From positions 1 to 39,266 of the forward strand of contig PAYV01000007.1 of NCBI GenBank assembly GCA_002715305.1: a stretch of 39,266 nucleotides of DNA. The letters run 5' to 3'. The notes beneath the pieces were generated by a model. That model did no database searches. It was not told where the DNA came from and saw nothing but the letters and a program-made list of their open reading frames with translations. This document shows positions 1 to 24,853 of this stretch, in pieces; position 1 is the stretch's first letter; every line of letters begins with the position of its first letter. Position numbers and translations under genes: made by a program. Origin of the DNA: Rickettsiales bacterium (lineage in GTDB: Bacteria; Pseudomonadota; Alphaproteobacteria; Methylaequorales; Methylaequoraceae).

Positions 1-855
1 CGATATCCTCTGAAGTGGTCCTAAAAAAGCATTTACTGTTTGATTCTTAATACTTGAACGAATGTATGACTCAGCTACTAAATTAAATTTTTTTGCCATT
101 CTTTTTTGCTGCCTGAAGTTTTGAATAATTGGTAATGCATTAATTATTTCGTTGGCTTTTGACGCTATCATCTCAAGTCCTATTCTCATTCCTTTACTAT
201 AATAAGCTTGATGTTTGTATGCAGTTTTTAAAAGTAATAAAATTATTATTGATATTGAAAATATTATCAAAGTAAACTTTATATCAATCATCAGCATTAA
301 ACTTAAATATATTAAGATAATAATAATTTGAGGAATATAAGAAACCATACTAAAAACGAAACTTGATACAGATCTTGGTAAAGAATTAAGAAGAGTATAT
401 ATTTCACCAGAATCTTTATCTTTGTATTTTTTGAAATCAAGGTTAAGTAATGTAGAGTAAACTCTATTTCTCAAATCAAGCTCAAAATTATGCCTTATTC
501 TTAAATTAAAAAATTCAGTTATATATAAACTAAATTCTCTTATTATTTGTAAACAAATTAGAATTATCAAAATTCCTAAAATTTTTTGATCATTATTCCA
601 AGTATTAAAAAAATTTAATAAATACATTTGAAGTTCGCTCAAATTTTCCGTAGATATATTTTGATTTGAAAAAATTAAAATTATAGGTTGTAATAACGCA
701 ATTGTTAGAAAGTCAGAAAAACCCGAAATTAATGACAAAAAAATTACAATGAAAAAGTGTATCTTTGAAATCTTTGAATAATGTATTAATGAATTCCAAA
801 GTCCAACTTGTTCTTTGAAATCTATGTTAAGAGCATCATATTTTTTTTTTTTCAC
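1..855 (-). CDS. ABC exporter, N-terminal transmembrane domain (MsbA/PglK-like type I exporter). The 3' part of the gene lies beyond the left window edge.
   Basis: Absent from the ORF track because it is truncated by the window edge. My own translation of the minus strand from GTG at 855 is open all the way to position 1 (285 codons): VKKKKYDALNIDFKEQVGLWNSLIHYSKISKIHFFIVIFLSLISGFSDFLTIALLQPII...LDLRNRVYSTLLNLDFKKYKDKDSGEIYTLLNSLPRSVSSFVFSMVSYIPQIIIILIYLSLMLMID...IINALPIIQNFRQQKRMAKKFN. The alternating hydrophobic helices and the f-d-k-GE-l-s-l motif pattern are typical of ABC_membrane domains. The start codon is uncertain: GTG followed directly by an A12 run. Confidence 0.6.
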   Translation of the reverse strand, partial: MKKKKYDALNIDFKEQVGLWNSLIHYSKISKIHFFIVIFLSLISGFSDFLTIALLQPIILIFSNQNISTENLSELQMYLLNFFNTWNNDQKILGILIILICLQIIREFSLYITEFFNLRIRHNFELDLRNRVYSTLLNLDFKKYKDKDSGEIYTLLNSLPRSVSSFVFSMVSYIPQIIIILIYLSLMLMIDIKFTLIIFSISIIILLLLKTAYKHQAYYSKGMRIGLEMIASKANEIINALPIIQNFRQQKRMAKKFNLVAESYIRSSIKNQTVNAFLGPLQRIS

Positions 856-863
856 AATTTTTT

Positions 864-1589
864 TTAAGAAATTATAACTGCATAGTTTTGGTTTCCGTCT
901 CTCTTAATCCATGGTTTTTTTCGATTAATCCCAATTTTTAAAATTTTAAAACCTTCATGTCTTAAAATTTTACAAAAAAACTTTGATCTTAATAGCAATG
1001 TATTATCCCTTGATATGTATTTTTGGTCAGAAACAAGTTCAACATAATTTTTCATTCTCCAATTAAATTTCAGATTACCTACATATAAACATGCAGGCTT
1101 TTGAGGCTTTAAAACTCTTTTAATTTCTCTAATATAATCAATTAAAACATTTAAGGTTGGTAAGTGTTGCATTACTATAAAGCTATAAATAAAATCAATA
1201 CTTTTATCTTCTAAAGGAATATTGTTTCCGGAACCTTTGATAAGTTTTACATTATTTATTTTTTCTCTCTTTAACATTTCTTTTACCGTAGTAAATGATT
1301 TGTGAATATCAATACCAATTACATTATTAAAATAATAACTTGCTGCCCTTAGAAGTCTTCCCCCGCCAAAGCCAATCTCCAGTGCATTGCAGTTATGGGG
1401 ATTGCCAAGATAATCAAGAATTTCATCTTTTAAAATATGATAAGAAAAATCCCACATTCCTTGCTTAAGATTATGATTATAATTTAGTGAATCATCAAAA
1501 TAAGAAAAAAATTCGTCACGGGACTTACCTGTTTTCTTCTTAATTTCTTTTCTCCACTTTGAAAAGTGACTTTTTTCTATATCACTCAT
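864..1589 (-). CDS. class I SAM-dependent methyltransferase
   Basis: 241 aa. Glycine-rich SAM motif I ALEIGFGGGRLL, followed by VIGIDI and IDFIYSFIVMQHL (motifs II/III). 4-nt ATGA overlap with galE upstream. Confidence 0.75.
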   Translation of the reverse strand: MSDIEKSHFSKWRKEIKKKTGKSRDEFFSYFDDSLNYNHNLKQGMWDFSYHILKDEILDYLGNPHNCNALEIGFGGGRLLRAASYYFNNVIGIDIHKSFTTVKEMLKREKINNVKLIKGSGNNIPLEDKSIDFIYSFIVMQHLPTLNVLIDYIREIKRVLKPQKPACLYVGNLKFNWRMKNYVELVSDQKYISRDNTLLLRSKFFCKILRHEGFKILKIGINRKKPWIKRDGNQNYAVIIS

Positions 1590-2593
1590 TCTTTATCTCT
1601 AGAGTTTTTGATTTTCTCTTCCCATAAACATGCAGTTTTAAGAATATTTGCAATATCTGAATATTTGGGATACCAAATTAGTTGTTTTTTTGCTTTTGAT
1701 ATATTTGCAACTAATCTTGCACTATCCCCATTTCTTCGATTTGTGAATTTAATTTTAATTTTTTTATTAAAAATATCTTCTGCTTTTTTAATTACCTCTA
1801 TAACTGAATAACCTCTGCCTGAACCTAGATTAAATACTTCATTTTTTTTATTTTTTAAAAGATATATTGATGCTTTAAGATGAGCATCTACTAAATCATG
1901 AACATGAATGTAATCACGAATACACGTACCATCGTAAGTTTGAAAATTATTCCCAAAAATTGAAATTTCATTCCTCTTTTTTTGGATATATTCAACTATT
2001 ATTTTCACTATATGAGTGGATTTTTTACCTAATTGTCCACATCTTATCTGCATATCAGCTCCTGCAACATTAAAGTACCTTAGAAAAATATAGTTAATTT
2101 TTTCTGAATTAGATAAATCTTCAAGGAGCCACTCAATTGACAATTTTGTTCTACTGTATGGACTGTAAGGATTGTTAAGATCAATCTCTCTAATTGTTTT
2201 ATTTTTTGTATTACCATAGATTGCTGCTGTAGAAGAAATTACAAAATTTTTAATTTTGCATTCAATACAGGTCCTAAAAAAATTAAATGCATTTATCAAA
2301 TTATTTTCGTAATATAACAAAGGCTTTTCATATGACTCGTATTGTATAATATTTCCTGCTAAATGAATGACTAAATCAGGTTTATTTTCATTTATTACTT
2401 TTTTTACAAGATTTTTATTTCCATAATTTCCTTTATAAAACTTAATATTTTTAGGAAGATATTTTTGAGTACCATTTGATAGATCATCAATAATTGAAAC
2501 TTGATGGCCAAGATCATTTAGTAAATGTGACATTTGAGTTCCTATGTATCCAGCTCCTCCAGTTAATAAAAATTTTATTTTTTTATTTATCAT
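1586..2593 (-). CDS. galE: UDP-glucose 4-epimerase family (extended SDR)
   Basis: 335 aa. N-terminal Rossmann motif LLTGGAGYIGTQ, catalytic YxxxK in YSRTKLSIEWLL, and RYFNVAGA, which is typical of GalE. Confidence 0.8.
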   Translation of the reverse strand: MINKKIKFLLTGGAGYIGTQMSHLLNDLGHQVSIIDDLSNGTQKYLPKNIKFYKGNYGNKNLVKKVINENKPDLVIHLAGNIIQYESYEKPLLYYENNLINAFNFFRTCIECKIKNFVISSTAAIYGNTKNKTIREIDLNNPYSPYSRTKLSIEWLLEDLSNSEKINYIFLRYFNVAGADMQIRCGQLGKKSTHIVKIIVEYIQKKRNEISIFGNNFQTYDGTCIRDYIHVHDLVDAHLKASIYLLKNKKNEVFNLGSGRGYSVIEVIKKAEDIFNKKIKIKFTNRRNGDSARLVANISKAKKQLIWYPKYSDIANILKTACLWEEKIKNSRDKE

Positions 2594-3677
2594 TTAAAAT
2601 CTGTTTAAGATTCCTCAAATAAATTTTAAGATTATGATTTTTTTTTATATACTCATAAGCATTTTTTCCAATTCTTCTTCTTTCCCTTGATGATCTTAAT
2701 TTTTCAATCTTTCCTGACAAATCTATGCTATTATTCTCATTAAATAAAAAACCGTTAACATTATCGATTATTATTTGTTTTATTCCTATTACATTGGATG
2801 CAATGACTGGAAGTCGTGATGCCATTGCTTCTAACATTGCTTTGGGATTGCCTTCATAAATTGATGGAAAAATAAATATATCCGAAGTCCTGTAGATATT
2901 TTTTAATTCTATATTTTTTTTTTGTCCCAAAAACTCTACAGGTAAACTATTTTCATTGACATAATTTTCTAATTGCAAACGTAGCTCTCCATCTCCAACT
3001 ATTTTTAATTTTATATTCTTTACATTTTTTATGGATTTTAGCAAAAATTCTAAGTTTTTTTGTTTAGTTAGCCTTCCAGTGAATACTAGTGTCAACTTAT
3101 TATTATTTTTATAGTTTCTCTTGGTATCAAATTTTTCAATATCAACGTAATTTGGTAATAAAAAAATATTTTTTTTTCTTTTTTTACTTATATATCGATA
3201 TTGATGTTCACTAGTTGTAATAATTTTTTCAGCAAATTTAAAAACAAAAAACTCTACAAATTTAAAATATATATAAATTAATGAAAACTTTCCGTATAAT
3301 TTTTTAGTGTGCAAAGATAGTGGAAACCCTGATCTTGCAATCATAGTTGTTTTTGTTAACTTTGATGCAATTAATGCCCATTCAGATCCAAATGTTTGAT
3401 TAGTAAGTAAAATAGAATTTTTATTCTTTCTCATTAATCTAATTAATTCTGGTATAACCCATATTCTAGATCTTATTTTTTTTTTATTCTCTACCAATTT
3501 TATAGGGTTAATTTTTTTAACAAATTTTTCATCTTCCCCTTTAGCCCAACTAAATAAAGAAATTTTATATTTTTCTTTTACAAGACCTTTCAAAAAAGCT
3601 AGTTCTCTGTCAATAGTTCCAAGCTCATTAAATTTTGATAAGGTTGTTCCTTGATCAAGATAAAAAATTATATGCAT
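2583..3677 (-). CDS. glycosyltransferase, GT-B fold (GT4 family)
   Basis: 364 aa. C-terminal GT4 signature FIFPSIYEGNPKAMLEAMASRLPVIASNVIGIKQII (E-x7-E type motif). Confidence 0.75.
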   Translation of the reverse strand: MHIIFYLDQGTTLSKFNELGTIDRELAFLKGLVKEKYKISLFSWAKGEDEKFVKKINPIKLVENKKKIRSRIWVIPELIRLMRKNKNSILLTNQTFGSEWALIASKLTKTTMIARSGFPLSLHTKKLYGKFSLIYIYFKFVEFFVFKFAEKIITTSEHQYRYISKKRKKNIFLLPNYVDIEKFDTKRNYKNNNKLTLVFTGRLTKQKNLEFLLKSIKNVKNIKLKIVGDGELRLQLENYVNENSLPVEFLGQKKNIELKNIYRTSDIFIFPSIYEGNPKAMLEAMASRLPVIASNVIGIKQIIIDNVNGFLFNENNSIDLSGKIEKLRSSRERRRIGKNAYEYIKKNHNLKIYLRNLKQILNDK

Positions 3678-3680
3678 AAA

Positions 3681-4457
3681 TTATTTTTTTTGTGCAACTG
3701 CAATTAGCATGTGAGCGAATAATTTTGATGGAAGTAATTTTGAAATAATTATAACCAGCCTATCAAAAAAGAACGTTGGTAAAAAATCAAGTTTTAAAGA
3801 GGTAAGAAGTCTTTTTGTTCCCTGAATTTTATGAATATAGTTGATTTTTAGAACTTCAAAATTATTGATACTTAATTCATTAAATAACTCGTGTTCTCTC
3901 AATCTCCACTGATAAAAATGAAAATTATCATTAGGGTTGTTTTTTATTTTTCTTTTCTGAAGTCTCATACGAAAGTTATCATAAGGAACACTTATAATTA
4001 GATATCCTTTTTTTCTTAATACTCTGTAGGCTTCTTTTAAAGGTCTGGAAAAACCATCTTCAAAGTGCTCAAAAACACCCCAGGAAAAATATGTATCAAT
4101 TGAAGAATCTTTATAACTAAGATTTGTAATATCATCTTTTTTCCATGAATATTTTGGATAATGTTTTTTTAAACCTGTAATAATTACATTGCTAAAATCT
4201 AATCCATCCGTTATAAAACCTAATTCATTTAAAAGAATTACCCATTCACCATGTCCACATCCACCATCAATTATTCTCGATTTCTTTGGCAGAATTTTAA
4301 TAAAATTTTTAACTATACCGTATTCTTCACTATTTTTAGTTTGATTTACTATGAATTTTATATCATTTTTAAGTTTTTTTTTTTTCCATAAATTTGTCCA
4401 TAGTATTTGTGGATTAACACCATTTTTCTTATTTTTTATTATATAATCTTTAATCAC
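3681..4457 (-). CDS. class I SAM-dependent methyltransferase
   Basis: 258 aa. SAM motif IIDGGCGHGEW, then LDFS and a GYLIISVP-type post-motif. Contains an in-frame A12 run (KKKK, 4374-4385). Confidence 0.7.
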   Translation of the reverse strand: MIKDYIIKNKKNGVNPQILWTNLWKKKKLKNDIKFIVNQTKNSEEYGIVKNFIKILPKKSRIIDGGCGHGEWVILLNELGFITDGLDFSNVIITGLKKHYPKYSWKKDDITNLSYKDSSIDTYFSWGVFEHFEDGFSRPLKEAYRVLRKKGYLIISVPYDNFRMRLQKRKIKNNPNDNFHFYQWRLREHELFNELSINNFEVLKINYIHKIQGTKRLLTSLKLDFLPTFFFDRLVIIISKLLPSKLFAHMLIAVAQKK

Positions 4458-5394
4458 AGTGAAATAATTCTAAATATTGATTTGCTACATTTTGAATATC
4501 AGGAACTATAATCTTATTCTGTAAATCATTATAATTATGCACAACCTTTTTAATTAAGTCTATTATTTCCTCGTTTTTTGAAAAACTATACCCAGCCTGT
4601 CTAACAATTTCAGGATGTCCTCCAGAATTAAAATATACTACTGGTAAACCACAAGCTAGAGCCTCCAAGACAGCATTCGAACAGGGATCATTTTGACTAG
4701 CTGTCAAAAAAATATCGTGGTCACGAAGAATTGAAGCCAAATCTTCAGATTTCTTAGGGCTTATAATTTTAATATTTTTAAATTTTGCATTAATATTCCC
4801 TACAAAGGTAAAATCGTACTTTTTGAAGTTTAGGTTTTTGTCAATCCATTCATAGGTCTCCTGTCCCTTTCTAATATTAGATGACCAGCTTGTAGCAATA
4901 ATTTTGATTTTTGTTTGTTTTGAAATTTCCTTTCTATTTTCTGAATTAAAAATATCAGGGTCTGGTGCATTTTGGATAATTTTTATTTTATTGTCATCAA
5001 ATAAAAATCCTAAATTGATATGTTCATTATAGCTGTAATTACTTTGAAATATTGTATAATCAGCATAGGACCGATTGAAATCAACAATTCTTTTGTCTAG
5101 ATCAATATTCTCTCCTCTGTAAAGAGCAATAGGTCCATCAACCCTATGAACTGTAGAATATTTTTTTTTTTTTAATTTTTTACTGAGCCAATTCATATCA
5201 AAATTAAAAGAATTAAATAATACATATTTAGTATTTATTCCTATTTTGTTTGGTCCTATATCATATCCTGCTTTTTTAACCCATTTTTTTAAGGCTAACA
5301 AGAACTGATTGCCTCCTCCGTAAGGAGGTGGTACGAATTGGTTAATTATACTTATTTTGTATCCAGTAAAATATTTAAGAAGATTTAGTTCCAT
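4450..5394 (-). CDS. glycosyltransferase, GT-B fold (GT1/GT4-like)
   Basis: 314 aa. N-terminal PPPYGGGNQF and C-terminal FLTASQNDPCSNAVLEALACGLPVVYFNSGGHPEIV nucleotide-sugar binding motif. Confidence 0.7.
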   Translation of the reverse strand: MELNLLKYFTGYKISIINQFVPPPYGGGNQFLLALKKWVKKAGYDIGPNKIGINTKYVLFNSFNFDMNWLSKKLKKKKYSTVHRVDGPIALYRGENIDLDKRIVDFNRSYADYTIFQSNYSYNEHINLGFLFDDNKIKIIQNAPDPDIFNSENRKEISKQTKIKIIATSWSSNIRKGQETYEWIDKNLNFKKYDFTFVGNINAKFKNIKIISPKKSEDLASILRDHDIFLTASQNDPCSNAVLEALACGLPVVYFNSGGHPEIVRQAGYSFSKNEEIIDLIKKVVHNYNDLQNKIIVPDIQNVANQYLELFHCD

Positions 5395-6436
5395 ATATTT
5401 TTTTTTTGAAAATTTTTATTAAAACAATAATCATCTCTTTGGGAAATTTGACAAATATTTTGGTTAGAAAAATGATTTCAGAAATTATCTTTCTAGGATT
5501 CATTAAATTGAATTTAAAACTTGAAATAAGAATTCTATTTATAAAAAAGAAATTAAACTCCTTGTCAATTTTGTATTTTGTTAAAATAAATTCATAGAAT
5601 CTAAAGTATATTTTACTTAATTTTAATCTATCTATATTTTTTTTATCAGCAACTTTTCTGGAATCTGAAAAATATTCTTGTATTTTAAAAATTTCACCTG
5701 TTTTTATTTTGAAAAAAATTTTTTCTTTTTTTAACCTGTTTTTTATGATTGATACATTTGAAACTATATTTTTTTTCATATAAGTTTTTGTCATATTAGA
5801 ATCATGAACCCTATACTGTAAAAGTCTTTTTTTGATATTAGCAGCTTTATGGTTCAGTAATATTCTTGACCAAAGATCAAAGTCCTGATTAATATGCTTG
5901 TTACAATAGGCTTTGTGAGGATTCGTAAATATTTTTTTTTTCATTAATATACTCGGATGAATAAAAGGGTTGTGCATCAAACTATATGCCCAGATTGCCG
6001 AGTGTTTCGAAGGTACATCTATTTCCCCAATTTCAATGTCGGATTTATTAATTATTTTAGCTTGAGAGCCCAAGATATCAATTTCTGGATTTTCTTTAAA
6101 ATAGTTAATTTGTTCCTTAAACCTATTTCTAGTTGAAATGTCATCTGAATCCATTCTAGCAATAAAACTACCATTAGATAATTTTATTGCCTTATTAAGA
6201 CTTAAAGTTTGACCTATATTCTTTTTATTAAAAATTAATTTGAGACGATCAAAATTTAAAGATTTTAAAAATTTAGAACTATCATCAGTAGAACAATCAT
6301 CAACAATGATAAGTTCAAAATTTTTGTAAGTTTGTGATATAATACTATCAACTGACTTTTCAAGAAATGGCATACCATTGTAGTTTGTTAATATTACACT
6401 AATCTTAAAATCTGAATTTTTGTCTAAATTAGGCAT
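5375..6436 (-). CDS. glycosyltransferase family 2 (GT-A fold)
   Basis: ISVILTNYNGMPFLEKSVDSIISQTYKNFELIIVDDCSTDDS followed by ARMDSDD (DxD). I prefer the start at the internal ATG at 6436 (MPNLDKN...), which gives an 8-nt overlap with the acpS stop. The track ORF extends to 6463. Confidence 0.8.
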   Translation of the reverse strand: MPNLDKNSDFKISVILTNYNGMPFLEKSVDSIISQTYKNFELIIVDDCSTDDSSKFLKSLNFDRLKLIFNKKNIGQTLSLNKAIKLSNGSFIARMDSDDISTRNRFKEQINYFKENPEIDILGSQAKIINKSDIEIGEIDVPSKHSAIWAYSLMHNPFIHPSILMKKKIFTNPHKAYCNKHINQDFDLWSRILLNHKAANIKKRLLQYRVHDSNMTKTYMKKNIVSNVSIIKNRLKKEKIFFKIKTGEIFKIQEYFSDSRKVADKKNIDRLKLSKIYFRFYEFILTKYKIDKEFNFFFINRILISSFKFNLMNPRKIISEIIFLTKIFVKFPKEMIIVLIKIFKKKIYGTKSS

Positions 6437-6839
6437 TAAAAAAGTATATTGAAACAAAAGCAACAGAATATTCTTTTTCGCTTGATATAGATAAAGTCAC
6501 ACCATGATTTCTGTAATCGCTTTTGACCTCTTTTAGTAAAGTTTTTGATCTTCCTAAAAAATATAGACTTGGTTTTCCTAATTTGTCATTAATTATTTCT
6601 AAATCGGAGAAACGAACTCCATTAGTAAATCCTGTTCCAAGAGCTTTTGCAGCTGCTTCTTTAGCAGCAAATCTATTAGAAAGTTTTTCACTTAATAATT
6701 CATTGTTTTTAGAAAATTTGATAAGGATTTTAAGCTCTTTTTCTGACAGAATTTTTTCCATAAAGCGTTTGCCGAATCTATGTAAGATCTTTCTTATCCT
6801 TTTTCGTTCTACAATATCAGTCCCATTAATTATACGCAT
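6429..6839 (-). CDS. acpS: holo-[acyl-carrier-protein] synthase (4'-phosphopantetheinyl transferase, AcpS type)
   Basis: MRIINGTDIVERKRI...NRFAAKEAAAKALGTGFTNGVRFSDLEIINDKLGKPSL...VTLSISSEKEYSVAFV aligns over the whole length with E. coli AcpS (GTDIVE, RFAxKEAAAKAxGTG, NDxLGKP). The start is taken at ATG 6839, one nt after the upstream stop. The track start at 6869 is probably over-extended. Confidence 0.8.
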   Translation of the reverse strand: MRIINGTDIVERKRIRKILHRFGKRFMEKILSEKELKILIKFSKNNELLSEKLSNRFAAKEAAAKALGTGFTNGVRFSDLEIINDKLGKPSLYFLGRSKTLLKEVKSDYRNHGVTLSISSEKEYSVAFVSIYFFNA

Positions 6840-6840
6840 T

Positions 6841-7671
6841 TTATTCACTAAAATTAATTGTAAACCCATCTTTAATTAACTTCGCAGTTCGTACATCTAA
6901 ATATCCTTTTTTATATCCGTCCATTGTACTTACATCACTCGCTCTAAAGATTTTTCCATGATGATTTCTATTCGCAATCTCAGTCATTGTACCCCCATTT
7001 ATAATTCCAATTTCTTTATAGTATTTCCAATATTCGCAAAAAAAATCTTTCTCTGTAATTAAATCGTTTTTAGACAACTTATTAAAAATTTTTTTTAAAA
7101 CTTCAATTCTATTTAAACCTACAATTTTAGGATGAAGATTACTTTTATAAAGATTATTCGAACTTAAAATTTTATTAAAATACGCTTTTACATTTGTTGG
7201 GTATGATTTTAATCTAATAGCGTCATTTACAAATTTCGAAAAAAACAAATCTTTGTCATATAAAAATTTAAATAATACACTAAATTTTTGACATCTTATT
7301 GATCCAATATCATTGTTATTATCCAAATAATATTCAGCTTCAATTAACTTATCCAAGTCAAAGTGAAAACAATCTGATTCCATGAAATATAAATAACTAT
7401 ATTCTTTCTTAAGGTATTTTTTATAATTGTTCAGTAACCAAATAATTGCACCCCACAGCCCAATGTTTTTTGAAGATTTAAAAACTTTTGGAAATTTCTT
7501 CAAATTAGATTTAGTTTTTTTAAAGGTTGATGCATTATCGAAAACAATAAAATCTTCAAAGAATCTAAACTTTTTTTCAAGTTGAAAGATATTTTTTGAT
7601 ACTTTCTCAAATACATCATCTCTTGATTTATCAAGAGAACAAGTAATTAGAACAAAAAGTATTTTTTTCAT
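6841..7671 (-). CDS. hypothetical protein, possibly a divergent GT-A-fold glycosyltransferase
   Basis: 276 aa with no recognisable family. Weak GT-A-like succession: ILFVLITC (beta1), IVFDNAST (DNxST-like), SSKNIGLWGAI, YFMESDC (acidic DxD-like). It is the first gene after the largest intergenic gap in the operon. Confidence 0.4.
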   Translation of the reverse strand: MKKILFVLITCSLDKSRDDVFEKVSKNIFQLEKKFRFFEDFIVFDNASTFKKTKSNLKKFPKVFKSSKNIGLWGAIIWLLNNYKKYLKKEYSYLYFMESDCFHFDLDKLIEAEYYLDNNNDIGSIRCQKFSVLFKFLYDKDLFFSKFVNDAIRLKSYPTNVKAYFNKILSSNNLYKSNLHPKIVGLNRIEVLKKIFNKLSKNDLITEKDFFCEYWKYYKEIGIINGGTMTEIANRNHHGKIFRASDVSTMDGYKKGYLDVRTAKLIKDGFTINFSE

Positions 7672-7730
7672 TTTGCTAAATTCATTTATAGTAATTTATT
7701 TAAAATTTAATTTTTGCTTGTAAAATTTTA

Positions 7731-7743
7731 ATAGCTACCGCAG
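7731..7743 (-). promoter_or_regulatory. ops-like element copy 2 (TGCGGTAGCTATT on the coding strand)
   Basis: Plus strand reads AATAGCTACCGCA, identical to the 13-mer at 23621-23633. The core GCGGTAGC equals positions 2-9 of E. coli ops, GGCGGTAGCGTG. It lies 59 nt upstream of ATG 7671, in the 186-nt gap after wzx. Confidence 0.5.
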
Positions 7744-7805
7744 TCTCTTTAATAAGCGACAAAAAAAGTTGATCCAAAAGTCAGAATACAGTTAAATTAT
7801 TAATT

Positions 7806-7833
7806 ATTATATACAAAAAGAAATATTATTCAA
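7806..7833 (-). promoter_or_regulatory. candidate sigma70-type internal promoter (TTGAAT-16 nt-TATAAT)
   Basis: On the minus strand, TTGAAT (7833-7828), a 16-nt spacer, then TATAAT (7811-7806), about 60 nt upstream of the ops-like motif. AT-rich hexamers arise easily by chance in this genome. Confidence 0.25.
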
Positions 7834-7857
7834 CACTTGAAATTCAAATAGAGAACT

Positions 7858-9303
7858 TCAATATTTTATAATTTTTTTGAAAGAAATATTTTTCATTATA
7901 TTCCTCTCATCCCTGGTAGAAAATAAATACGATATGAATAAAAATGAAACAGAAAAAATTAGAGATAGCAAAATCACTTCTTTAATAGCGAAGATTTGAT
8001 GCAATTTTATAAGAAAAATAGAAAGGATTAAAAGTAACAATTTCAAAAAAATAATTCTTTTAATTTTCCAAATAGCTTTCCAATATTTTTCAGCTAATAT
8101 GAGGTCAATAACTATTTTTATAAAAAAACTTACCGCAATAGATGATGCTATACCAAGAATACCGAAGTATTTACAAAGTATGTGCAATGAAATTATTGAA
8201 GTGATTATGTAAGCTGTGAATCCGAATAGTATCAATTCAGGTTTTTTGGAGATATATATTCCAATCTCAAGCATCCACCCTAGAAATTGTAAAGAATAAC
8301 CATAGCAAATAGGAAGAATTAAGAAAATACATGCTATGTATTTCTCTGAAGAGAGAAAAGAAACAATATTTTTAGAAAAACCAATTATTAAAATAATTAA
8401 AAATGAGATTGTCGTTGCAAATAAAAATAATATTAAATTAAAAATTTTTTCAGAGTCTTTTTCTTGATACTTTTTAAGCGCGAAAGGTCCCCAAGCTGAT
8501 TGAAAAGCTTGAGCAAGTACCCCAATGCATAATGAAATCTTAATTGCTACTGCAAACAAACCTAATTCATAATCACCAATAAATTCTTTTACAAAAAATC
8601 TTTCTAAAATTGGAACAAAAATTGAAATAACACAAACAATCCCGCATGGAATAGCATATTTCAAAAGTTTTTTAATCAGTATTTTATCAATCTTAAAATA
8701 AAAAAAATTTATTAATAGAAAAAATGAAATTATCGTAATAAAAAATTGGCCATATAATAAAAAATTGAAAAATGTAATTATATTTTTGTTCGTAGTTACT
8801 ACTAGATAGGTGCAAACCACAATAAGAAAAAAATTTAATATTGAAATAATCAAAAATTTAGTTTTTGAAAAAGTCCATCTAAATATATTTTCAGAAAAAG
8901 AAATAAATAAGATAAATGGAATTTGTAAAGTTATAATTAAAAATAATTCATTTGTATAAAAAAAATTTTCTAAATAGTCCCTTAGATATATTAATAAAAT
9001 TAAAACTATTACTAAAAAAATTATATGTATAAGAAAGGAGTTTGTTACTACAATTTTTTGTTTGTCTTTTGTTTTTTGTTCTTGAATATACCTTCCAACT
9101 GCAGAATCTTGACCAAATGTTGTAAATACGATTATAAGACTTATTAAACTTAGTAAAAAATCTAATCTTCCATAATCTTCTACACTAAAATAACGAGCTA
9201 GAAAAGGAAAGGTAATAAGAACAGATAATTTATTTAAACCTGTCATGAATCCATAAAATATAAGATCTTTTAAAAAAAGGAAAAAATTTTGATTCTTTTT
9301 CAA
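7858..9303 (-). CDS. wzx: Wzx-type oligosaccharide flippase (MOP superfamily polysaccharide biosynthesis protein)
   Basis: 481 aa and almost entirely hydrophobic, with about 12-14 predicted helices. The N-terminal pattern LNKLSVLITFPFLARYFSVEDYGRLDFLLSL is typical of Wzx/RfbX proteins. It sits inside a glycan cluster. Confidence 0.7.
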   Translation of the reverse strand: MKKNQNFFLFLKDLIFYGFMTGLNKLSVLITFPFLARYFSVEDYGRLDFLLSLISLIIVFTTFGQDSAVGRYIQEQKTKDKQKIVVTNSFLIHIIFLVIVLILLIYLRDYLENFFYTNELFLIITLQIPFILFISFSENIFRWTFSKTKFLIISILNFFLIVVCTYLVVTTNKNIITFFNFLLYGQFFITIISFFLLINFFYFKIDKILIKKLLKYAIPCGIVCVISIFVPILERFFVKEFIGDYELGLFAVAIKISLCIGVLAQAFQSAWGPFALKKYQEKDSEKIFNLILFLFATTISFLIILIIGFSKNIVSFLSSEKYIACIFLILPICYGYSLQFLGWMLEIGIYISKKPELILFGFTAYIITSIISLHILCKYFGILGIASSIAVSFFIKIVIDLILAEKYWKAIWKIKRIIFLKLLLLILSIFLIKLHQIFAIKEVILLSLIFSVSFLFISYLFSTRDERNIMKNISFKKIIKY

Positions 9304-10118
9304 GATATACTCTCATATAATTCAGTGTAATTCTGAATCATTTTATTAAAGTCATATTTTTTTGAATCTTTTAATGCCTGCGCCCCCAATTTTTTAATAA
9401 TTTTTTTATTAATGATTAAATATTTCATAATATTGAAAAGCTTATGATGGTCATTTTTATCAATCAAAAAACCATTCTTATTATTTATTACATCCAGGTT
9501 GCCTCCAACACGTGTTGCAATCACTGGTATACCAAAACTAAGAAATTCCAAGATACTATTGGAAAAACCTTCTTCGTCAGATGATGATATTCCAATATCA
9601 CTAATTTTATAAAAATCCTCTATATTTAAGGATTGTTTAAAAAAATGAATGTGATTTTTAAGATTATATTCTTCTATCAAAATTCTCAGAGAACGTTCAT
9701 AAACTATATCACCACTTCCAACAAAGATAATTTTAAAGTTTTTATATTCTTTCAAAAGCAAATGTGCTGCCTTAATAACCATTTTATGATTTTTATATGG
9801 AATCAAATTGGCTATAACAGAGAAAATAATACTTTTTGAATTAGAATATTTGTTGAGGATACTAAAATCTGTAGACTTACTAAGTCGAGTTTTATTGTTT
9901 TTAAGCACTCCATTATATATGAGCTTGAGTTTATGTTTCATTACACCTTCTTTTTCAAGTTGACTAATTACTGCTTTTGAATTTCCTAAAGCATATTTAA
10001 CTTTAGAATGTAAAAATTTTTCAATTCTAGAAATTGGTATAAATTTGTATTTTTTTTGATAATTATTTAAAGATCTTCTACTCATTAATACATTTTTTTT
10101 TTTTAAGTATCCAACCAA
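9300..10118 (-). CDS. glycosyltransferase GT4, C-terminal half only (frame-shifted continuation of 10078-11610)
   Basis: Contains SSDEEGFSNSILEFLSFGIPVIATRVGGNLDVI (GT4 E-x7-E region) but lacks the N-terminal Rossmann half. The first ATG is at 10085 and the track start at 10118 is TTG. It overlaps the upstream ORF across an A12 run. Confidence 0.7.
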   Translation of the reverse strand: MVGYLKKKNVLMSRRSLNNYQKKYKFIPISRIEKFLHSKVKYALGNSKAVISQLEKEGVMKHKLKLIYNGVLKNNKTRLSKSTDFSILNKYSNSKSIIFSVIANLIPYKNHKMVIKAAHLLLKEYKNFKIIFVGSGDIVYERSLRILIEEYNLKNHIHFFKQSLNIEDFYKISDIGISSSDEEGFSNSILEFLSFGIPVIATRVGGNLDVINNKNGFLIDKNDHHKLFNIMKYLIINKKIIKKLGAQALKDSKKYDFNKMIQNYTELYESIS

Positions 10119-11610
10119 TTAATCCACCAAATATATATGATTGAGGTAAAAAACAATGAATAATCTGAGGTTTAAATAAATTCAAGTAATAAAGTACTTT
10201 AAAAAAATTTATGAAGTGATCAATTTTTTTAAAAATTGGTTTTTTTGGCTTAATAACTCTAACAAACGGATTTAGTTCTTTGAAAAGATTTCCTTCTTCA
10301 TTTAAAAGAAATAAATCAATATTGAAAATATTTCTGTCAAGATTATTAATTAAACTAATTAGATGTCTTTCTGTACCGCCAAGATTCAAAGAACCAATAA
10401 TAAATGAAATTCGTATTTTTTTATTTTTATTTTGATACTGTATTTCATTTTTTAATTTTGATATATATTTTTTTTTAAACTGAAAATACCATTTTCTATT
10501 TTGACTTCCTTTTTTTACTTCAATACTTTTATCAAACTTTAATAGATAATTTGCAATTTCACTGGGATTATTTATGTTTATAAAATTAGGAAGTGTTATC
10601 TTCTTTTCTAAATATCTGTCTTTAATACTAAGTTGATGAAAAAAATTTTTTCCTCTATTTATGAATTCCCAACCGCAGGAACCCCAGAACATATTTGCAA
10701 ATTCTGAGGAACCTATATCACAAACATCAATAAGATTATAAATTTCTGTTCTTTTAAGTTTAGGTATCCATAAAAAATGCTTTTCTAATCCATATTTTGA
10801 AATTAGTTTTTTAGTATCTTCAACATCTGGACCATACTCAGTAAGAATTACATAGATATTTTTTTTGTATGAAAGGGAGTAATATTGCTTAACTCCTTCA
10901 ACCAACCAATTGTTTCTTTTACCAAATCCATCCATATAATTTTTATATGGTAAATTTTTCCAAAAGTGAGCTACATGAGAAAATATTTTTATTGAGCTTT
11001 TTGGAAGTTTTCCAATTTTATGCATCCACAATTCATTAGTCTTATAAAGTTTTTCTTCAAATAGGGGAAAAATTGGGATTATATTTGGTAGAATTCCCAT
11101 TTTTTTAAATGTATTCAATGAAAAATCATGAAGATTAAATGTTGTTATACTATTGCAATTATCCAATGAACTATACTGAAGAAAGGAACAAATTTTAAAC
11201 CATAATATCTTCGGAAAATTTAACATTTTTCTTGAAAATATTATTTCTTTCAAATTATCAGTATTTTCGTTTATATGCTCAATACCTTCCCCATAAGGCA
11301 TAAAAATGTTTAATTTTCTGTGAATTTTTTTTAAAATATAAGGTGATATCCCGTTTCCAATTAAAAAATCAAAAGTTTTTAATTTATCTATTAAGAATTC
11401 CTTATTAAAAAATAGAATATCAGGTTTACCATTGGAAACTCCTAAATTATGAATAAATTTTTTCCATTTAGAAAGATCATGGGAATCTTCTTCTGGAAAA
11501 AAAAATTCATTGTTGAATAAAAATAAATGGGCATCATAACCTTCATTTCTAAGTATTCTCATAAGAGAAAAGTTATTATTATTCATATTTCCTAAAAGTC
11601 CAATTTTCAT
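10078..11610 (-). CDS. two-part protein: ~400-aa uncharacterised GT-B-like domain plus the N-terminal half of a GT4 glycosyltransferase, truncated by a frameshift
   Basis: The last ~110 aa (IRISFIIGSLNLGGTERHLISLINNL...IIHCFLPQSYIFGGLIGWILKKKK) form a GT4 N-terminal domain that stops just after an A12 run. Residues 1-400 (MKIGLLGN..., IYVILTEYGPDVEDTKKLISKYGLEKHFLWIPKLKRTEIYNLIDVCDIGSSEF) look like a second, divergent GT-B unit. Confidence 0.65.
   Translation of the reverse strand: MKIGLLGNMNNNNFSLMRILRNEGYDAHLFLFNNEFFFPEEDSHDLSKWKKFIHNLGVSNGKPDILFFNKEFLIDKLKTFDFLIGNGISPYILKKIHRKLNIFMPYGEGIEHINENTDNLKEIIFSRKMLNFPKILWFKICSFLQYSSLDNCNSITTFNLHDFSLNTFKKMGILPNIIPIFPLFEEKLYKTNELWMHKIGKLPKSSIKIFSHVAHFWKNLPYKNYMDGFGKRNNWLVEGVKQYYSLSYKKNIYVILTEYGPDVEDTKKLISKYGLEKHFLWIPKLKRTEIYNLIDVCDIGSSEFANMFWGSCGWEFINRGKNFFHQLSIKDRYLEKKITLPNFININNPSEIANYLLKFDKSIEVKKGSQNRKWYFQFKKKYISKLKNEIQYQNKNKKIRISFIIGSLNLGGTERHLISLINNLDRNIFNIDLFLLNEEGNLFKELNPFVRVIKPKKPIFKKIDHFINFFKVLYYLNLFKPQIIHCFLPQSYIFGGLIGWILKKKKCINE
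10093..10104 (-). repeat. A12 homopolymer (coding strand) at the frame break between the two GT4 halves
   Basis: Confirmed by ORF arithmetic: the four Lys codons AAA of ...GWILKKKKCINE* occupy 10093-10104. Removing one A gives ...GWILKKKNVLMSRRSLNNYQKK..., which reads straight into ORF 9300-10118. Confidence 0.9.
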
Positions 11611-23595: not shown

Positions 23596-23620
23596 AATCT
23601 TCTTTGAGTTTTTTTAATCA

Positions 23621-23633
23621 ATAGCTACCGCAA
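23621..23633 (-). promoter_or_regulatory. ops-like element copy 1 (TGCGGTAGCTATT on the coding strand)
   Basis: Plus strand AATAGCTACCGCA sits in the 80-nt gap between the RfaH-like gene stop (23676) and the asnB-like ATG (23595). GCGGTAGC is identical to positions 2-9 of E. coli ops. An exact 13-nt duplicate lies at 7731-7743. Confidence 0.55.
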
Positions 23634-23675
23634 TTCCAAGAGCAATCAAGGAATGGAAAATAAAAGTAGAATTAT

Positions 23676-24185
23676 TTAGTTTGGCAAAATGCAATCTTTT
23701 TCCAAGACTAAAGTTTTTTTATTCGAAATAAAATCTAGTAAAATTTTTATTCTATTATTTCCTACCATAGAAATTATTTCTCCAAACATTCTTTTGAAAG
23801 GTCCTTTTACTACTATGACACTTGAACTTGGTTTAAAAAAATAAATTTGTTTATTTATTAAACCATCATTGTTGGCGTGAAATCTTAAATTTTCTATAAA
23901 ACTCTTATCTATTTGTGAGGGAATAGAACCTATTGATAAAACTTTTTTTACTCCCTGTGTATACCTTATTTTTAACCATTGATAATTACTGAGATTGAAC
24001 TTTACAAAAATATATGACGGAAATAAAAATTCTTTTACAATCTTACCAATCTTACCATTCAATTTTTCTGTTTCAAAATAAGGACTGAAAGCATCAAAGT
24101 TCTGATTTCTTAGATTTTTTATTGCTCTATCTTCTTGGTTTGGTTTACACATTACAACAAACCAATTTTTTTCATTTTTTTCCAT
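23676..24185 (-). CDS. rfaH: NusG-family paralogue, RfaH-like transcription antiterminator
   Basis: 169 aa from ATG 24185. NGN domain WFVVMCKPNQEDRAIKNLRNQNFDAFSPYFETEKL...FLFPSYIFVKFNLSNYQWLKIRYTQGVKKVL. KOW-like C-terminus SVIVVKGPFKRMFGEIISMVGNNRIKILLDF. ATG 24185 overlaps the upstream stop by 14 nt. The track start at 24299 is over-extended into the regulator gene. Confidence 0.75.
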   Translation of the reverse strand: MEKNEKNWFVVMCKPNQEDRAIKNLRNQNFDAFSPYFETEKLNGKIGKIVKEFLFPSYIFVKFNLSNYQWLKIRYTQGVKKVLSIGSIPSQIDKSFIENLRFHANNDGLINKQIYFFKPSSSVIVVKGPFKRMFGEIISMVGNNRIKILLDFISNKKTLVLEKDCILPN

Positions 24186-24795
24186 ATTTTTTCTTTGGTT
24201 TGAAATTTGGTTTATTTCTACTAATAAAAAGCGAACTAACTGTAAATATTTTATTCTCATGATAATTTTCAGCAATTTTAAAATAAATTTCTTGAGCATT
24301 ATCAGTAGAACACAATAAAAATTTGAGGTTTTTTGAATTTTCTGGAATCTTTTTAATTATAGGTATATTAAAATAAAATTTTTTTTTTGTTTTTGGTTCA
24401 ATAACACCGATAATATTAGCATTAAATTCATTGGCCGAAAGAATTGCAATTTCACTTATTTCACTAATACCATAAATGATGAATTCACAGCTTAAATTTT
24501 CAGAAAAGAGTTGATTAAACTCCTTTCTCATAGATCTAAACAATGATAAAGAATCATTTAAATAGTTTAAAACAAGTTTAGATTTTTCAGAAAAACCCTC
24601 TGGAGTCAGATAATATACAAATCTTTTATAAGGAGCTTGTTGAACTTTTATTATACCTTTTTTTAAAAATTTTTTTATTAAAGCGTTGACGAAGCCAATA
24701 GATACAGAGATCTTGTTAGATATATTTTTTTGAGTAACCTCTTTTCCTTCTTCAAGAGAAGATAAAAAATCAAGTTCAGAATTCTTTTTTTTCAC
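24172..24795 (-). CDS. winged-helix (MarR-like, EPS-associated type) transcriptional regulator with a C-terminal Rossmann-like domain
   Basis: 207 aa. The N-terminus TQKNISNKISVSIGFVNALIKKFLKKGIIKVQQAPYKRFVYYLTPEGFSEK is a typical wHTH. The C-terminal half (FIIYGISEISEIAILSANEFNANIIGVIEP) resembles the N-terminal nucleotide-binding-like module of NeuD/sugar-transferase proteins. GTG start at 24795. Confidence 0.55.
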   Translation of the reverse strand: MKKKNSELDFLSSLEEGKEVTQKNISNKISVSIGFVNALIKKFLKKGIIKVQQAPYKRFVYYLTPEGFSEKSKLVLNYLNDSLSLFRSMRKEFNQLFSENLSCEFIIYGISEISEIAILSANEFNANIIGVIEPKTKKKFYFNIPIIKKIPENSKNLKFLLCSTDNAQEIYFKIAENYHENKIFTVSSLFISRNKPNFKPKKKYGKK

Positions 24796-24801
24796 AATAT
24801 C

Positions 24802-24829
24802 ATTATATCATCAAATAATTGTAATTCAA
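24802..24829 (-). promoter_or_regulatory. candidate sigma70-type promoter (TTGAAT-16 nt-TATAAT) upstream of the regulator/rfaH-like genes
   Basis: On the minus strand, TTGAAT (24829-24824), a 16-nt spacer, then TATAAT (24807-24802). The hexamers and spacing are the same as the candidate at 7806-7833. The -10 ends only 6 nt before GTG 24795, so either the mRNA is nearly leaderless or the true start codon or promoter differs. Confidence 0.3.
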
Positions 24830-24836
24830 GTATTGA

Positions 24837-24853
24837 AATTCACTGTGTGAATT
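24837..24853. promoter_or_regulatory. perfect inverted repeat AATTCAC-N3-GTGAATT, candidate operator
   Basis: 17-bp palindrome with 7-bp arms, read directly from the sequence. It lies immediately upstream of the candidate -35, in the 122-nt gap between fcl and the wHTH regulator gene. Confidence 0.4.

Follow-up and report, generated by a model that had tools for sequence, protein, structure and literature searches.

The largest intergenic gap of a glycan cluster from an uncultured, genome-streamlined family of marine Alphaproteobacteria probably heads a second transcription unit that is co-regulated with the first and has an RfaH loading site of its own, a site that would also permit the factor to reload on polymerases reading through from upstream; we put the probability of this reading at about 0.6. 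The gap itself is best explained as a copy of the cluster's control region (the promoter P1, marR, an rfaH-like gene, a hairpin and the loading site ops1) from which both regulator genes appear to have since been lost. RfaH-type factors board the polymerase only at ops, so the placement of ops defines which parts of a locus get made. The parts of the gap and of its proposed parent are given in Table 1, with coordinates referring to the window, the whole 39,266-nt stretch of DNA analysed here.

Table 1. Parts of the candidate second head, of the distal unit and of the proposed parent head (window coordinates)
Feature	Position	Strand	Remark
Whole intergenic module (operator palindromes, P2, hairpin, ops2, leader)	7672..7857	-	wzx stop to next ATG
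Operator-like palindrome 1, TTCTC-TAT-TTGAA	7843..7855	-	same register as TTCAC-ACA-GTGAA of P1
Operator-like palindrome 2, TTCAA-GTG-TTGAA, overlapping the -35 hexamer	7829..7841	-	TGAATTTCA-N4-TTGAAT shared with P1
-35 hexamer TTGAAT of candidate promoter P2	7828..7833	-	hexamer and 16-nt spacing same as P1
-10 hexamer TATAAT of P2	7806..7811	-	TATTAT in G022 and L161
Hairpin GTCGCTT-ATTA-AAGAGAC	7743..7760	-	ends 1 nt before GCGG
ops2, TGCGGTAGCTATT, non-template strand	7730..7742	-	invariant in G022 and L161
AT-rich leader, 58 nt, ops2 to ATG	7672..7729	-	poorly conserved relative to G022
Distal unit, proposed to be served by P2/ops2	1..7671	-	runs off contig
P1, proposed parent promoter/operator	24802..24851	-	6 nt before marR GTG; profile E = 7.9e-8
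MarR_EPS-type regulator gene	24172..24795	-	TIGR04176 and Pfam MarR
RfaH-like NusG paralogue gene	23676..24185	-	TIGR01955 is best NCBIfam match
Hairpin (23633-23654) and ops1 (23620-23632)	23620..23654	-	first copy

The 13-mer TGCGGTAGCTATT occurs only twice in the 942,604-base assembly, and both copies lie between genes on the coding strand of the glycan cluster, which runs co-directionally on the minus strand from ~25982 down to base 1. The first copy, ops1, lies directly 3' of the RfaH-like gene. The second, ops2, lies in a gap of 186 nt that separates the stop of wzx (7858) from the following ATG (7671), its last base being 59 nt upstream of the A of that ATG; the remaining gaps of the cluster are 122 nt (before marR), 80 nt (at ops1) and otherwise at most 27 nt or overlaps. 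A candidate promoter, TTGAAT-16-TATAAT (7833-7806, minus strand, a 10/12 match), ends 63 nt upstream of the 13-mer. Downstream lie, in order, an orphan 276-aa gene, ACPS, a GT2, a GT1, a methyltransferase, a second GT1, an epimerase, a second methyltransferase and the membrane protein of an ABC exporter. A preliminary description of this DNA had reported the second exact 13-mer in the largest gap of the cluster, its distance from the ATG, the hexamers further upstream and this distal gene content, and our analysis bore out each of these observations. The 8-mer core of the motif, GCGGTAGC, is found twice in the window as against 0.03 expected, a count of two being reached in none of 100 shuffles, and no third copy of the 13-mer with up to two mismatches was detected in the window except for an in-frame, chance-level match at 8543.

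The gene that precedes ops1 encodes a NusG paralogue. Among NCBIfam models this protein scores highest with RfaH (TIGR01955; 104.7 bits, under the cut-off of 144.5), as compared with 60.6 bits for UpxY and 53.8 bits for LoaP, and among solved structures its closest relative is RfaH of E. coli (E = 1e-11; 3e-7 for NusG). Two of the five residues that we take to contact ops in E. coli RfaH (K10, H20, R23, Q24 and R73) are identical in this protein (K14 and Q28), with the others aligning with N24, N27 and Q77. Because of the sub-cut-off score and the small number of contact residues kept, the protein is named RfaH-like rather than an orthologue. Its gene is preceded by that of a MarR_EPS-type protein, which matches TIGR04176 with 58 bits (under the cut-off of 88) and also has a Pfam MarR match.

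Similarity between the gap and the promoter of this marR gene forms the second line of evidence. The motif TTGAAT-16-TATAAT would by itself be weak evidence for a promoter because such matches are common in AT-rich DNA: six promoter-like hexamers were found in the region (22% G+C) as against 4.4 expected, and the spacing of P2 falls within the sigma-70-type range of 16-18 nt. The hexamers are, however, embedded in a longer arrangement. P1 reads TTCAC-ACA-GTGAA-T-TTCAA-TAC-TTGAAT-N16-TATAAT and the gap (7855-7806) reads TTCTC-TAT-TTGAA-T-TTCAA-GTG-TTGAAT-N16-TATAAT in the same register, giving the common pattern TTCAN-N3-NTGAA-T-TTCAA-N3-TTGAAT-N16-TATAAT; the combination TGAATTTCA-N4-TTGAAT is present in the 0.94-Mb assembly at these two places only. 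An nhmmer profile made from five marR promoters, into which no gap sequence was put, detected the window gap with E = 0.002 (the next unrelated match had 1.3), the corresponding gap of the genome G022 with E = 0.002 and a site in G017 (site a) with E = 0.0012. Local alignment of the gap to P1 scored above 498 of 500 shuffles. Judged by these sequence comparisons, the ~50 nt upstream of ops2 are a paralogue of the promoter/operator before marR, a relationship that is new here.

The palindromes within this paralogous stretch resemble a MarR-type autoregulatory operator. The pattern TTCA-N5-TGAA was present upstream of marR in all 12 of 12 genomes as compared with 2.25% of random 80-nt windows (binomial p = 2e-20). 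The first half-site of palindrome 1 is TTCAC in G022 and in Tara and other metagenome contigs but TTCTC in the window. In five genomes, including G017, G022, G030 and that of the window (24795-24811, GTG start), 6-7 nt separate the -10 hexamer from the start codon of marR, and the marR mRNA would therefore be leaderless.

Conservation of the loading site was examined in a motif survey of 42 species genomes of the order and family, which are AT-rich marine Alphaproteobacteria. Fifteen matches to GCGGTAGCTAT were obtained in 12 of the 42 family genomes, as compared with six for the reversed control. Twelve sites (eleven with GCGGTAGCTAT and that of G010 with GCGGTAGCCAT) are located closely 3' of a marR and rfaH-like pair on the same strand. 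The remaining GCGGTAGCCAT matches were discarded as they fall within conserved coding sequence. Two matches to GCGGTAGC (G017:C6:80678 and G009:C1:3802) were found by eye to be inside tRNA-Ala(UGC)-like sequence, a predictable false positive of ops scans, and matches on contigs C1 and C15 were likewise set aside as false positives. These two contigs have ~50% G+C as compared with ~27% in the rest of a 56%-complete assembly, and are probably contamination. Outside the family, GGCGGTAGCGTG or TGCGGTAGCnTG follows the RfaH-like genes of many Alpha- and Gammaproteobacteria, and Alphaproteobacteria are known to carry RfaH genes (PMC7593976).

A second constant of these sites is a hairpin directly upstream. 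Its 3' arm ends 0-3 nt before GCGG at 16 of 16 family sites, as against a background of 13%, with stem sequences that vary by genome, and the 34 nt upstream of the sites have a mean folding energy of -6.07 kcal/mol as compared with -2.0 kcal/mol for random 34-mers (p = 3e-9). Because the loop lengths are too variable for alignment with MAFFT, the sites were assessed with folding statistics anchored by position and not with a covariance model. At ops2 of the window, a G/A mismatch lies within the hairpin, whose folding does not surpass that of shuffled sequences (z = -0.35); the G022 counterpart has a full stem, with 7 pairs and -8.6 kcal/mol. In other Alphaproteobacteria (L071, L075, L086, L104, L112 and L147) we also observed, before the ops sites that follow RfaH-like genes, a hairpin with a conserved 3' arm, TCACCCG(G/A)A(N)(T/G), which seems to correspond in Alphaproteobacteria to the upstream half of JUMPstart. 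The suggestion that the 13-mer is a loading site for the RfaH-like factor is thus supported by its core being 3' of an RfaH-like gene in 12 genomes and by the hairpin at every family site. A template-strand location in relatives would have spoken against it, and all of the sites were on the coding strand.

The gap itself could be compared between two lineages. G022, which belongs to another genus, has the same cassette and the same gap, with 93.4% identity over 21.7 kb (window 1-21721 and G022:C7:47166-68873), while its RfaH-like and MarR proteins are 42% and 53% identical to those of the window; this pattern points to recent horizontal exchange of the 21.7-kb cassette. The 13-mer is present in the homologous gaps of G022 and L161, and the whole module is near-identical in independent Tara and NCBI metagenome contigs (L151-L159). 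Functional positions (palindrome half-sites, hexamers, hairpin stems and the 13-mer) were set from P1 and ops1, though partly picked with hindsight. Between the window and G022, 2 of 49 functional positions (4%) differ as compared with 36 of 142 other gap positions (25%; Fisher p = 0.0007), and of the two functional differences one brings back the TTCA consensus in G022 and the other retains TAnnnT. The functional positions thus appear to be under constraint, although this comparison has little depth because the homologous gaps represent two lineages only (the window type and the G022/L161 type) whose cassettes are 93% identical.

Identity within the cassette is uneven. Window and G022 are ~95% identical except for an island at ~7900-6300, beginning at the gap, where identity falls to 65-82%. 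This island (6300-7900) reaches from the edge of the gap across the orphan 276-aa gene and ACPS into the beginning of the GT2 gene, and may be an older allele retained via recombination or a product of fast evolution. Two independently assembled contigs, L155 and L156, both begin with AGAGACTGCGG..., 78 nt before the ATG and within the 3' arm of the hairpin, and this shared start may mark a branch point between strains that differ upstream of ops2. In G022 only (L035, ~61080-61160 of C7), a frame of 24 codons begins at an ATG 8 nt after the -10 hexamer, spans the hairpin and ops and ends with the TAA that immediately follows the 13-mer; this frame is lacking in the window. The orphan 276-aa protein had no Pfam or NCBIfam match even with E up to 10, and formed three clusters only in a large protein collection; a metagenome scan with it returned one contig, 99.7% identical. 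A 59%-identical homologue of this first distal gene in L160 follows a divergent gene, with no ops upstream. A terminator-like hairpin with a weak T tail (TCTCTTGA-TAAA-TCAAGAGA, 7619-7638, minus strand) lies 33 nt into the same gene and ~92 nt after ops2, and could be an attenuator read through by modified polymerase or a chance product of the codons. Two ORFs of the window, of 510 and 272 aa (9300-11610), represent one glycosyltransferase split by a frameshift, the intact 769-aa form being present in G022 and three metagenome contigs; contig L150 (99.7% identical) differs from the window by one gap.

Three other family sites have no intact marR and rfaH-like pair upstream, namely those of G022, G017 (site a) and G025, and the last two indicate how a head such as that in the gap could arise. 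G017 site a (G017:C6:37300-37609; L026, L029) is situated between divergent genes, where it heads a module of 20 kb. In order, it comprises a promoter resembling P1, an ATG that begins 6 nt past the -10, what is left of the KOW domain of rfaH (residues ~110-158 with two TAA stops, E = 2e-8) and then the hairpin and ops; 22 kb further on, an intact P1-marR-rfaH-ops head precedes a second module. In G025 a promoter/operator (TTGACG-[GTTCATAAAATGAAC]-TATAAT) is followed after ~100 nt by a hairpin-ops directly ahead of asnB, with a divergent gene upstream and with neither marR nor rfaH. These sites indicate that a regulator-less head can derive from a full head by deletion, and that such heads occur where a promoter must exist. 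In the window, the gap possibly keeps a trace of the 5' end of marR between the -10 and the hairpin; a blastx search of the gap against 12 RfaH-like proteins of the family gave noise for an rfaH remnant (best E = 0.3), while the same search does detect the remnant of G017 (E = 2e-8). Heads of this kind are not universal: some glycan units of G030 are without ops, and no internal ops site was found in the flanks of other clusters examined, including >30 kb of G030 and with the exception of G022. The preliminary description had taken two ops sites in one locus to imply modular, separately boosted sub-operons, a view that G017, with two modules each under a promoter-ops head, and G025 favour but that the ops-less units of G030 prevent from being a general rule.

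These observations can be combined into a model. A sigma-70-type polymerase would start near 7799, the predicted start of P2, and the MarR_EPS protein would repress this step by binding, as we infer, to the palindromes that overlap the -35. Some 45 nt after the promoter the polymerase would transcribe the hairpin and pause at ops2, with the nascent hairpin ~11-12 nt behind the RNA 3' end. This distance is the geometry of hairpin-stabilized pauses such as that of his, whereas the pause at the E. coli ops is of the backtracked type. The RfaH-like protein would then load at ops2, giving processive transcription of at least 8 kb of distal DNA, and of at least 18 kb in G022, where the co-directional run continues to at least 79.5 kb. 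As RfaH-type factors load only at ops, any unit that starts from a separate promoter needs a separate ops as well. No terminator is predicted between wzx and ops2, and hence polymerases reading through from P1 should also cross ops2, where they could reload. Recent single-molecule work has reported that RfaH dissociates and that without ops there is no reloading (PMC13596475), which makes reloading a plausible second use of ops2. The RNA of the gap folds worse than shuffles (z = +1.64), the Rfam JUMPstart family (RF01707) was not matched with E up to 5 in the whole window or up to 10 at 7660-7870, and no other credible Rfam RNA family was found in the gap.

Reloading could instead be the only function, in which case the promoter-like part would be inactive and the 13-mer would re-recruit the factor to P1-started polymerases that had lost it over the first 16 kb. 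The co-directional genes with no predicted terminator up to ops2, the known fall-off of RfaH and its need for ops to reload (PMC13596475), and the example of EAEC, where an ops2 works inside a cluster, are consistent with this alternative. We nevertheless consider it unlikely, since the upstream 50 nt are a specific P1 paralogue with intact -35, -10 and palindromes, and its P1-like positions are kept relative to G022 while neighbouring positions of the gap drift. Furthermore, the sites of G025 and G017 (site a) are in divergent regions where a promoter must exist, and the flanks surveyed in other clusters have no internal site outside the shared cassette. Between a re-loading site and the leader of a second unit, both raised in the preliminary description, the second unit is therefore better supported, TTGAAT-16-TATAAT being part of the 50-nt paralogue, with reloading keeping a place given that no terminator is predicted. 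The gap could also be an evolutionary scar without function, left behind either when two clusters fused or when a duplicated head lost marR and rfaH. Such a scar would fit the decay in progress seen as the rfaH pseudogene remnant of G017, the weakened hairpin and deviant half-site base (TTCTC) of the window and the possible remnant of marR. This explanation appears improbable, however, as the 13-mer is letter-perfect, the hexamers and their spacing are the same as in P1 and functional positions differ by 4% as compared with 25% in the rest of the gap; moreover, an origin by deletion is no argument against present function.

The head might also serve mainly as a patch of homology for swapping of glycan modules, in the way that JUMPstart and gnd flank the O-antigen cassettes of E. 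coli. The high identity of the cassette between two genera with divergent regulators, the divergent island that starts at the gap and the two metagenome contigs that break at the same base just upstream of ops2 could all be read in this manner, but a 13-mer and a ~50-nt promoter are short for homologous recombination, and in the window the shared cassette has its 5' junction at a place other than ops1. We regard a role as anchor in place of regulation as very improbable; such a role would add to regulation and not replace it. Chance recurrence of a G+C-rich 13-mer, for which nothing speaks but the shortness of the motif, was rejected as having a negligible likelihood on the basis of the motif counts (two intergenic, coding-strand copies in 0.94 Mb and a strong excess of the core), the family survey and the hairpin statistics, with both copies sharing their hairpin and promoter context. 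A second transcription unit with its own loading site remains our preferred reading of the gap.

Our findings indicate that this family builds variable glycan islands from modules, each of which can carry the same small predicted head of repressor sites, promoter, hairpin and ops; we propose that these heads arise through duplication or fusion and then lose the regulator genes. More tentatively, the promoter/operator with its hairpin-ops may be a portable 'plug' that makes glycan modules expressible in any family host with a compatible pair of MarR_EPS and RfaH-like proteins, with heads of the P2/ops2 type marking the seams between modules and the abutting hairpin giving a hairpin-stabilized pause, unlike the backtracked pause of the E. 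coli ops. If this possibility were true, the distal module of modification and export genes could be expressed and exchanged on its own, which would help to explain movement of the 21.7-kb cassette between genera whose regulators are 42-53% identical. The model provides a testable account of how glycan cassettes are co-regulated and exchanged in organisms for which genetics is not available.

Comparison with the RfaH/ops system of E. coli (GGCGGTAGCGTG, in the JUMPstart leaders of rfa, rfb, kps, hly and tra) reveals the same core, GCGGTAGC, which corresponds to ops positions 2-9, in the same setting, namely the non-template strand of the 5' leader of a long polysaccharide operon, and a factor that is a NusG paralogue with RfaH as both best family and best solved relative. 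Judged against the ops core GGCGGTAG(nnTG), both window sites carry an exact GCGGTAGC, and both are on the coding strand, ahead of the next gene. The differences are a T in place of G at position 1 and TAT(T/G) in place of GTG at the 3' end (positions 10-12), a transcript hairpin that abuts the site, a factor gene located in cis between the promoter and the first ops, and identity at only two of the five presumed ops-contacting residues. The predicted MarR-type operator and the proposed origin of the internal head as a deletion derivative of the main head further distinguish this locus from known RfaH/ops systems.

The group 1 capsule loci of E. coli K30 and Klebsiella have a JUMPstart after the promoter and a stem-loop attenuator between wzc and the serotype-specific genes. 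These loci resemble the present cluster in consisting of a proximal and a distal block, and RfaH is needed for expression of the distal block (PMC3438125). They rely on one ops and an internal attenuator, whereas here the gap has no predicted terminator but a second promoter and a second ops. UpxY of Bacteroides and LoaP of Firmicutes are specialized NusG paralogues, and a leader hairpin contributes to the recruitment of LoaP. Both share with the RfaH-like protein a gene located inside the polysaccharide or secondary-metabolite locus under their control, but the present protein is far closer to RfaH by score and its DNA signal is an RfaH-type ops core.

The closest parallel is the sci1 T6SS cluster of EAEC, which has two functional intergenic ops sites (bioRxiv 10.1101/2025.02.08.637259). 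Both clusters are long and have more than one ops, each in an intergenic gap, and the distal ops of EAEC boosts the genes after it. In EAEC, however, ops2 is a weaker variant of the consensus, whereas the two copies here are identical; the second site here is accompanied by a duplicated promoter/operator; and the EAEC sites were tested by mutation while those described here are predicted from sequence. The mechanism known for RfaH is left unchanged by our findings, which place an independent, predicted example beside the one published cluster in which two ops sites work.
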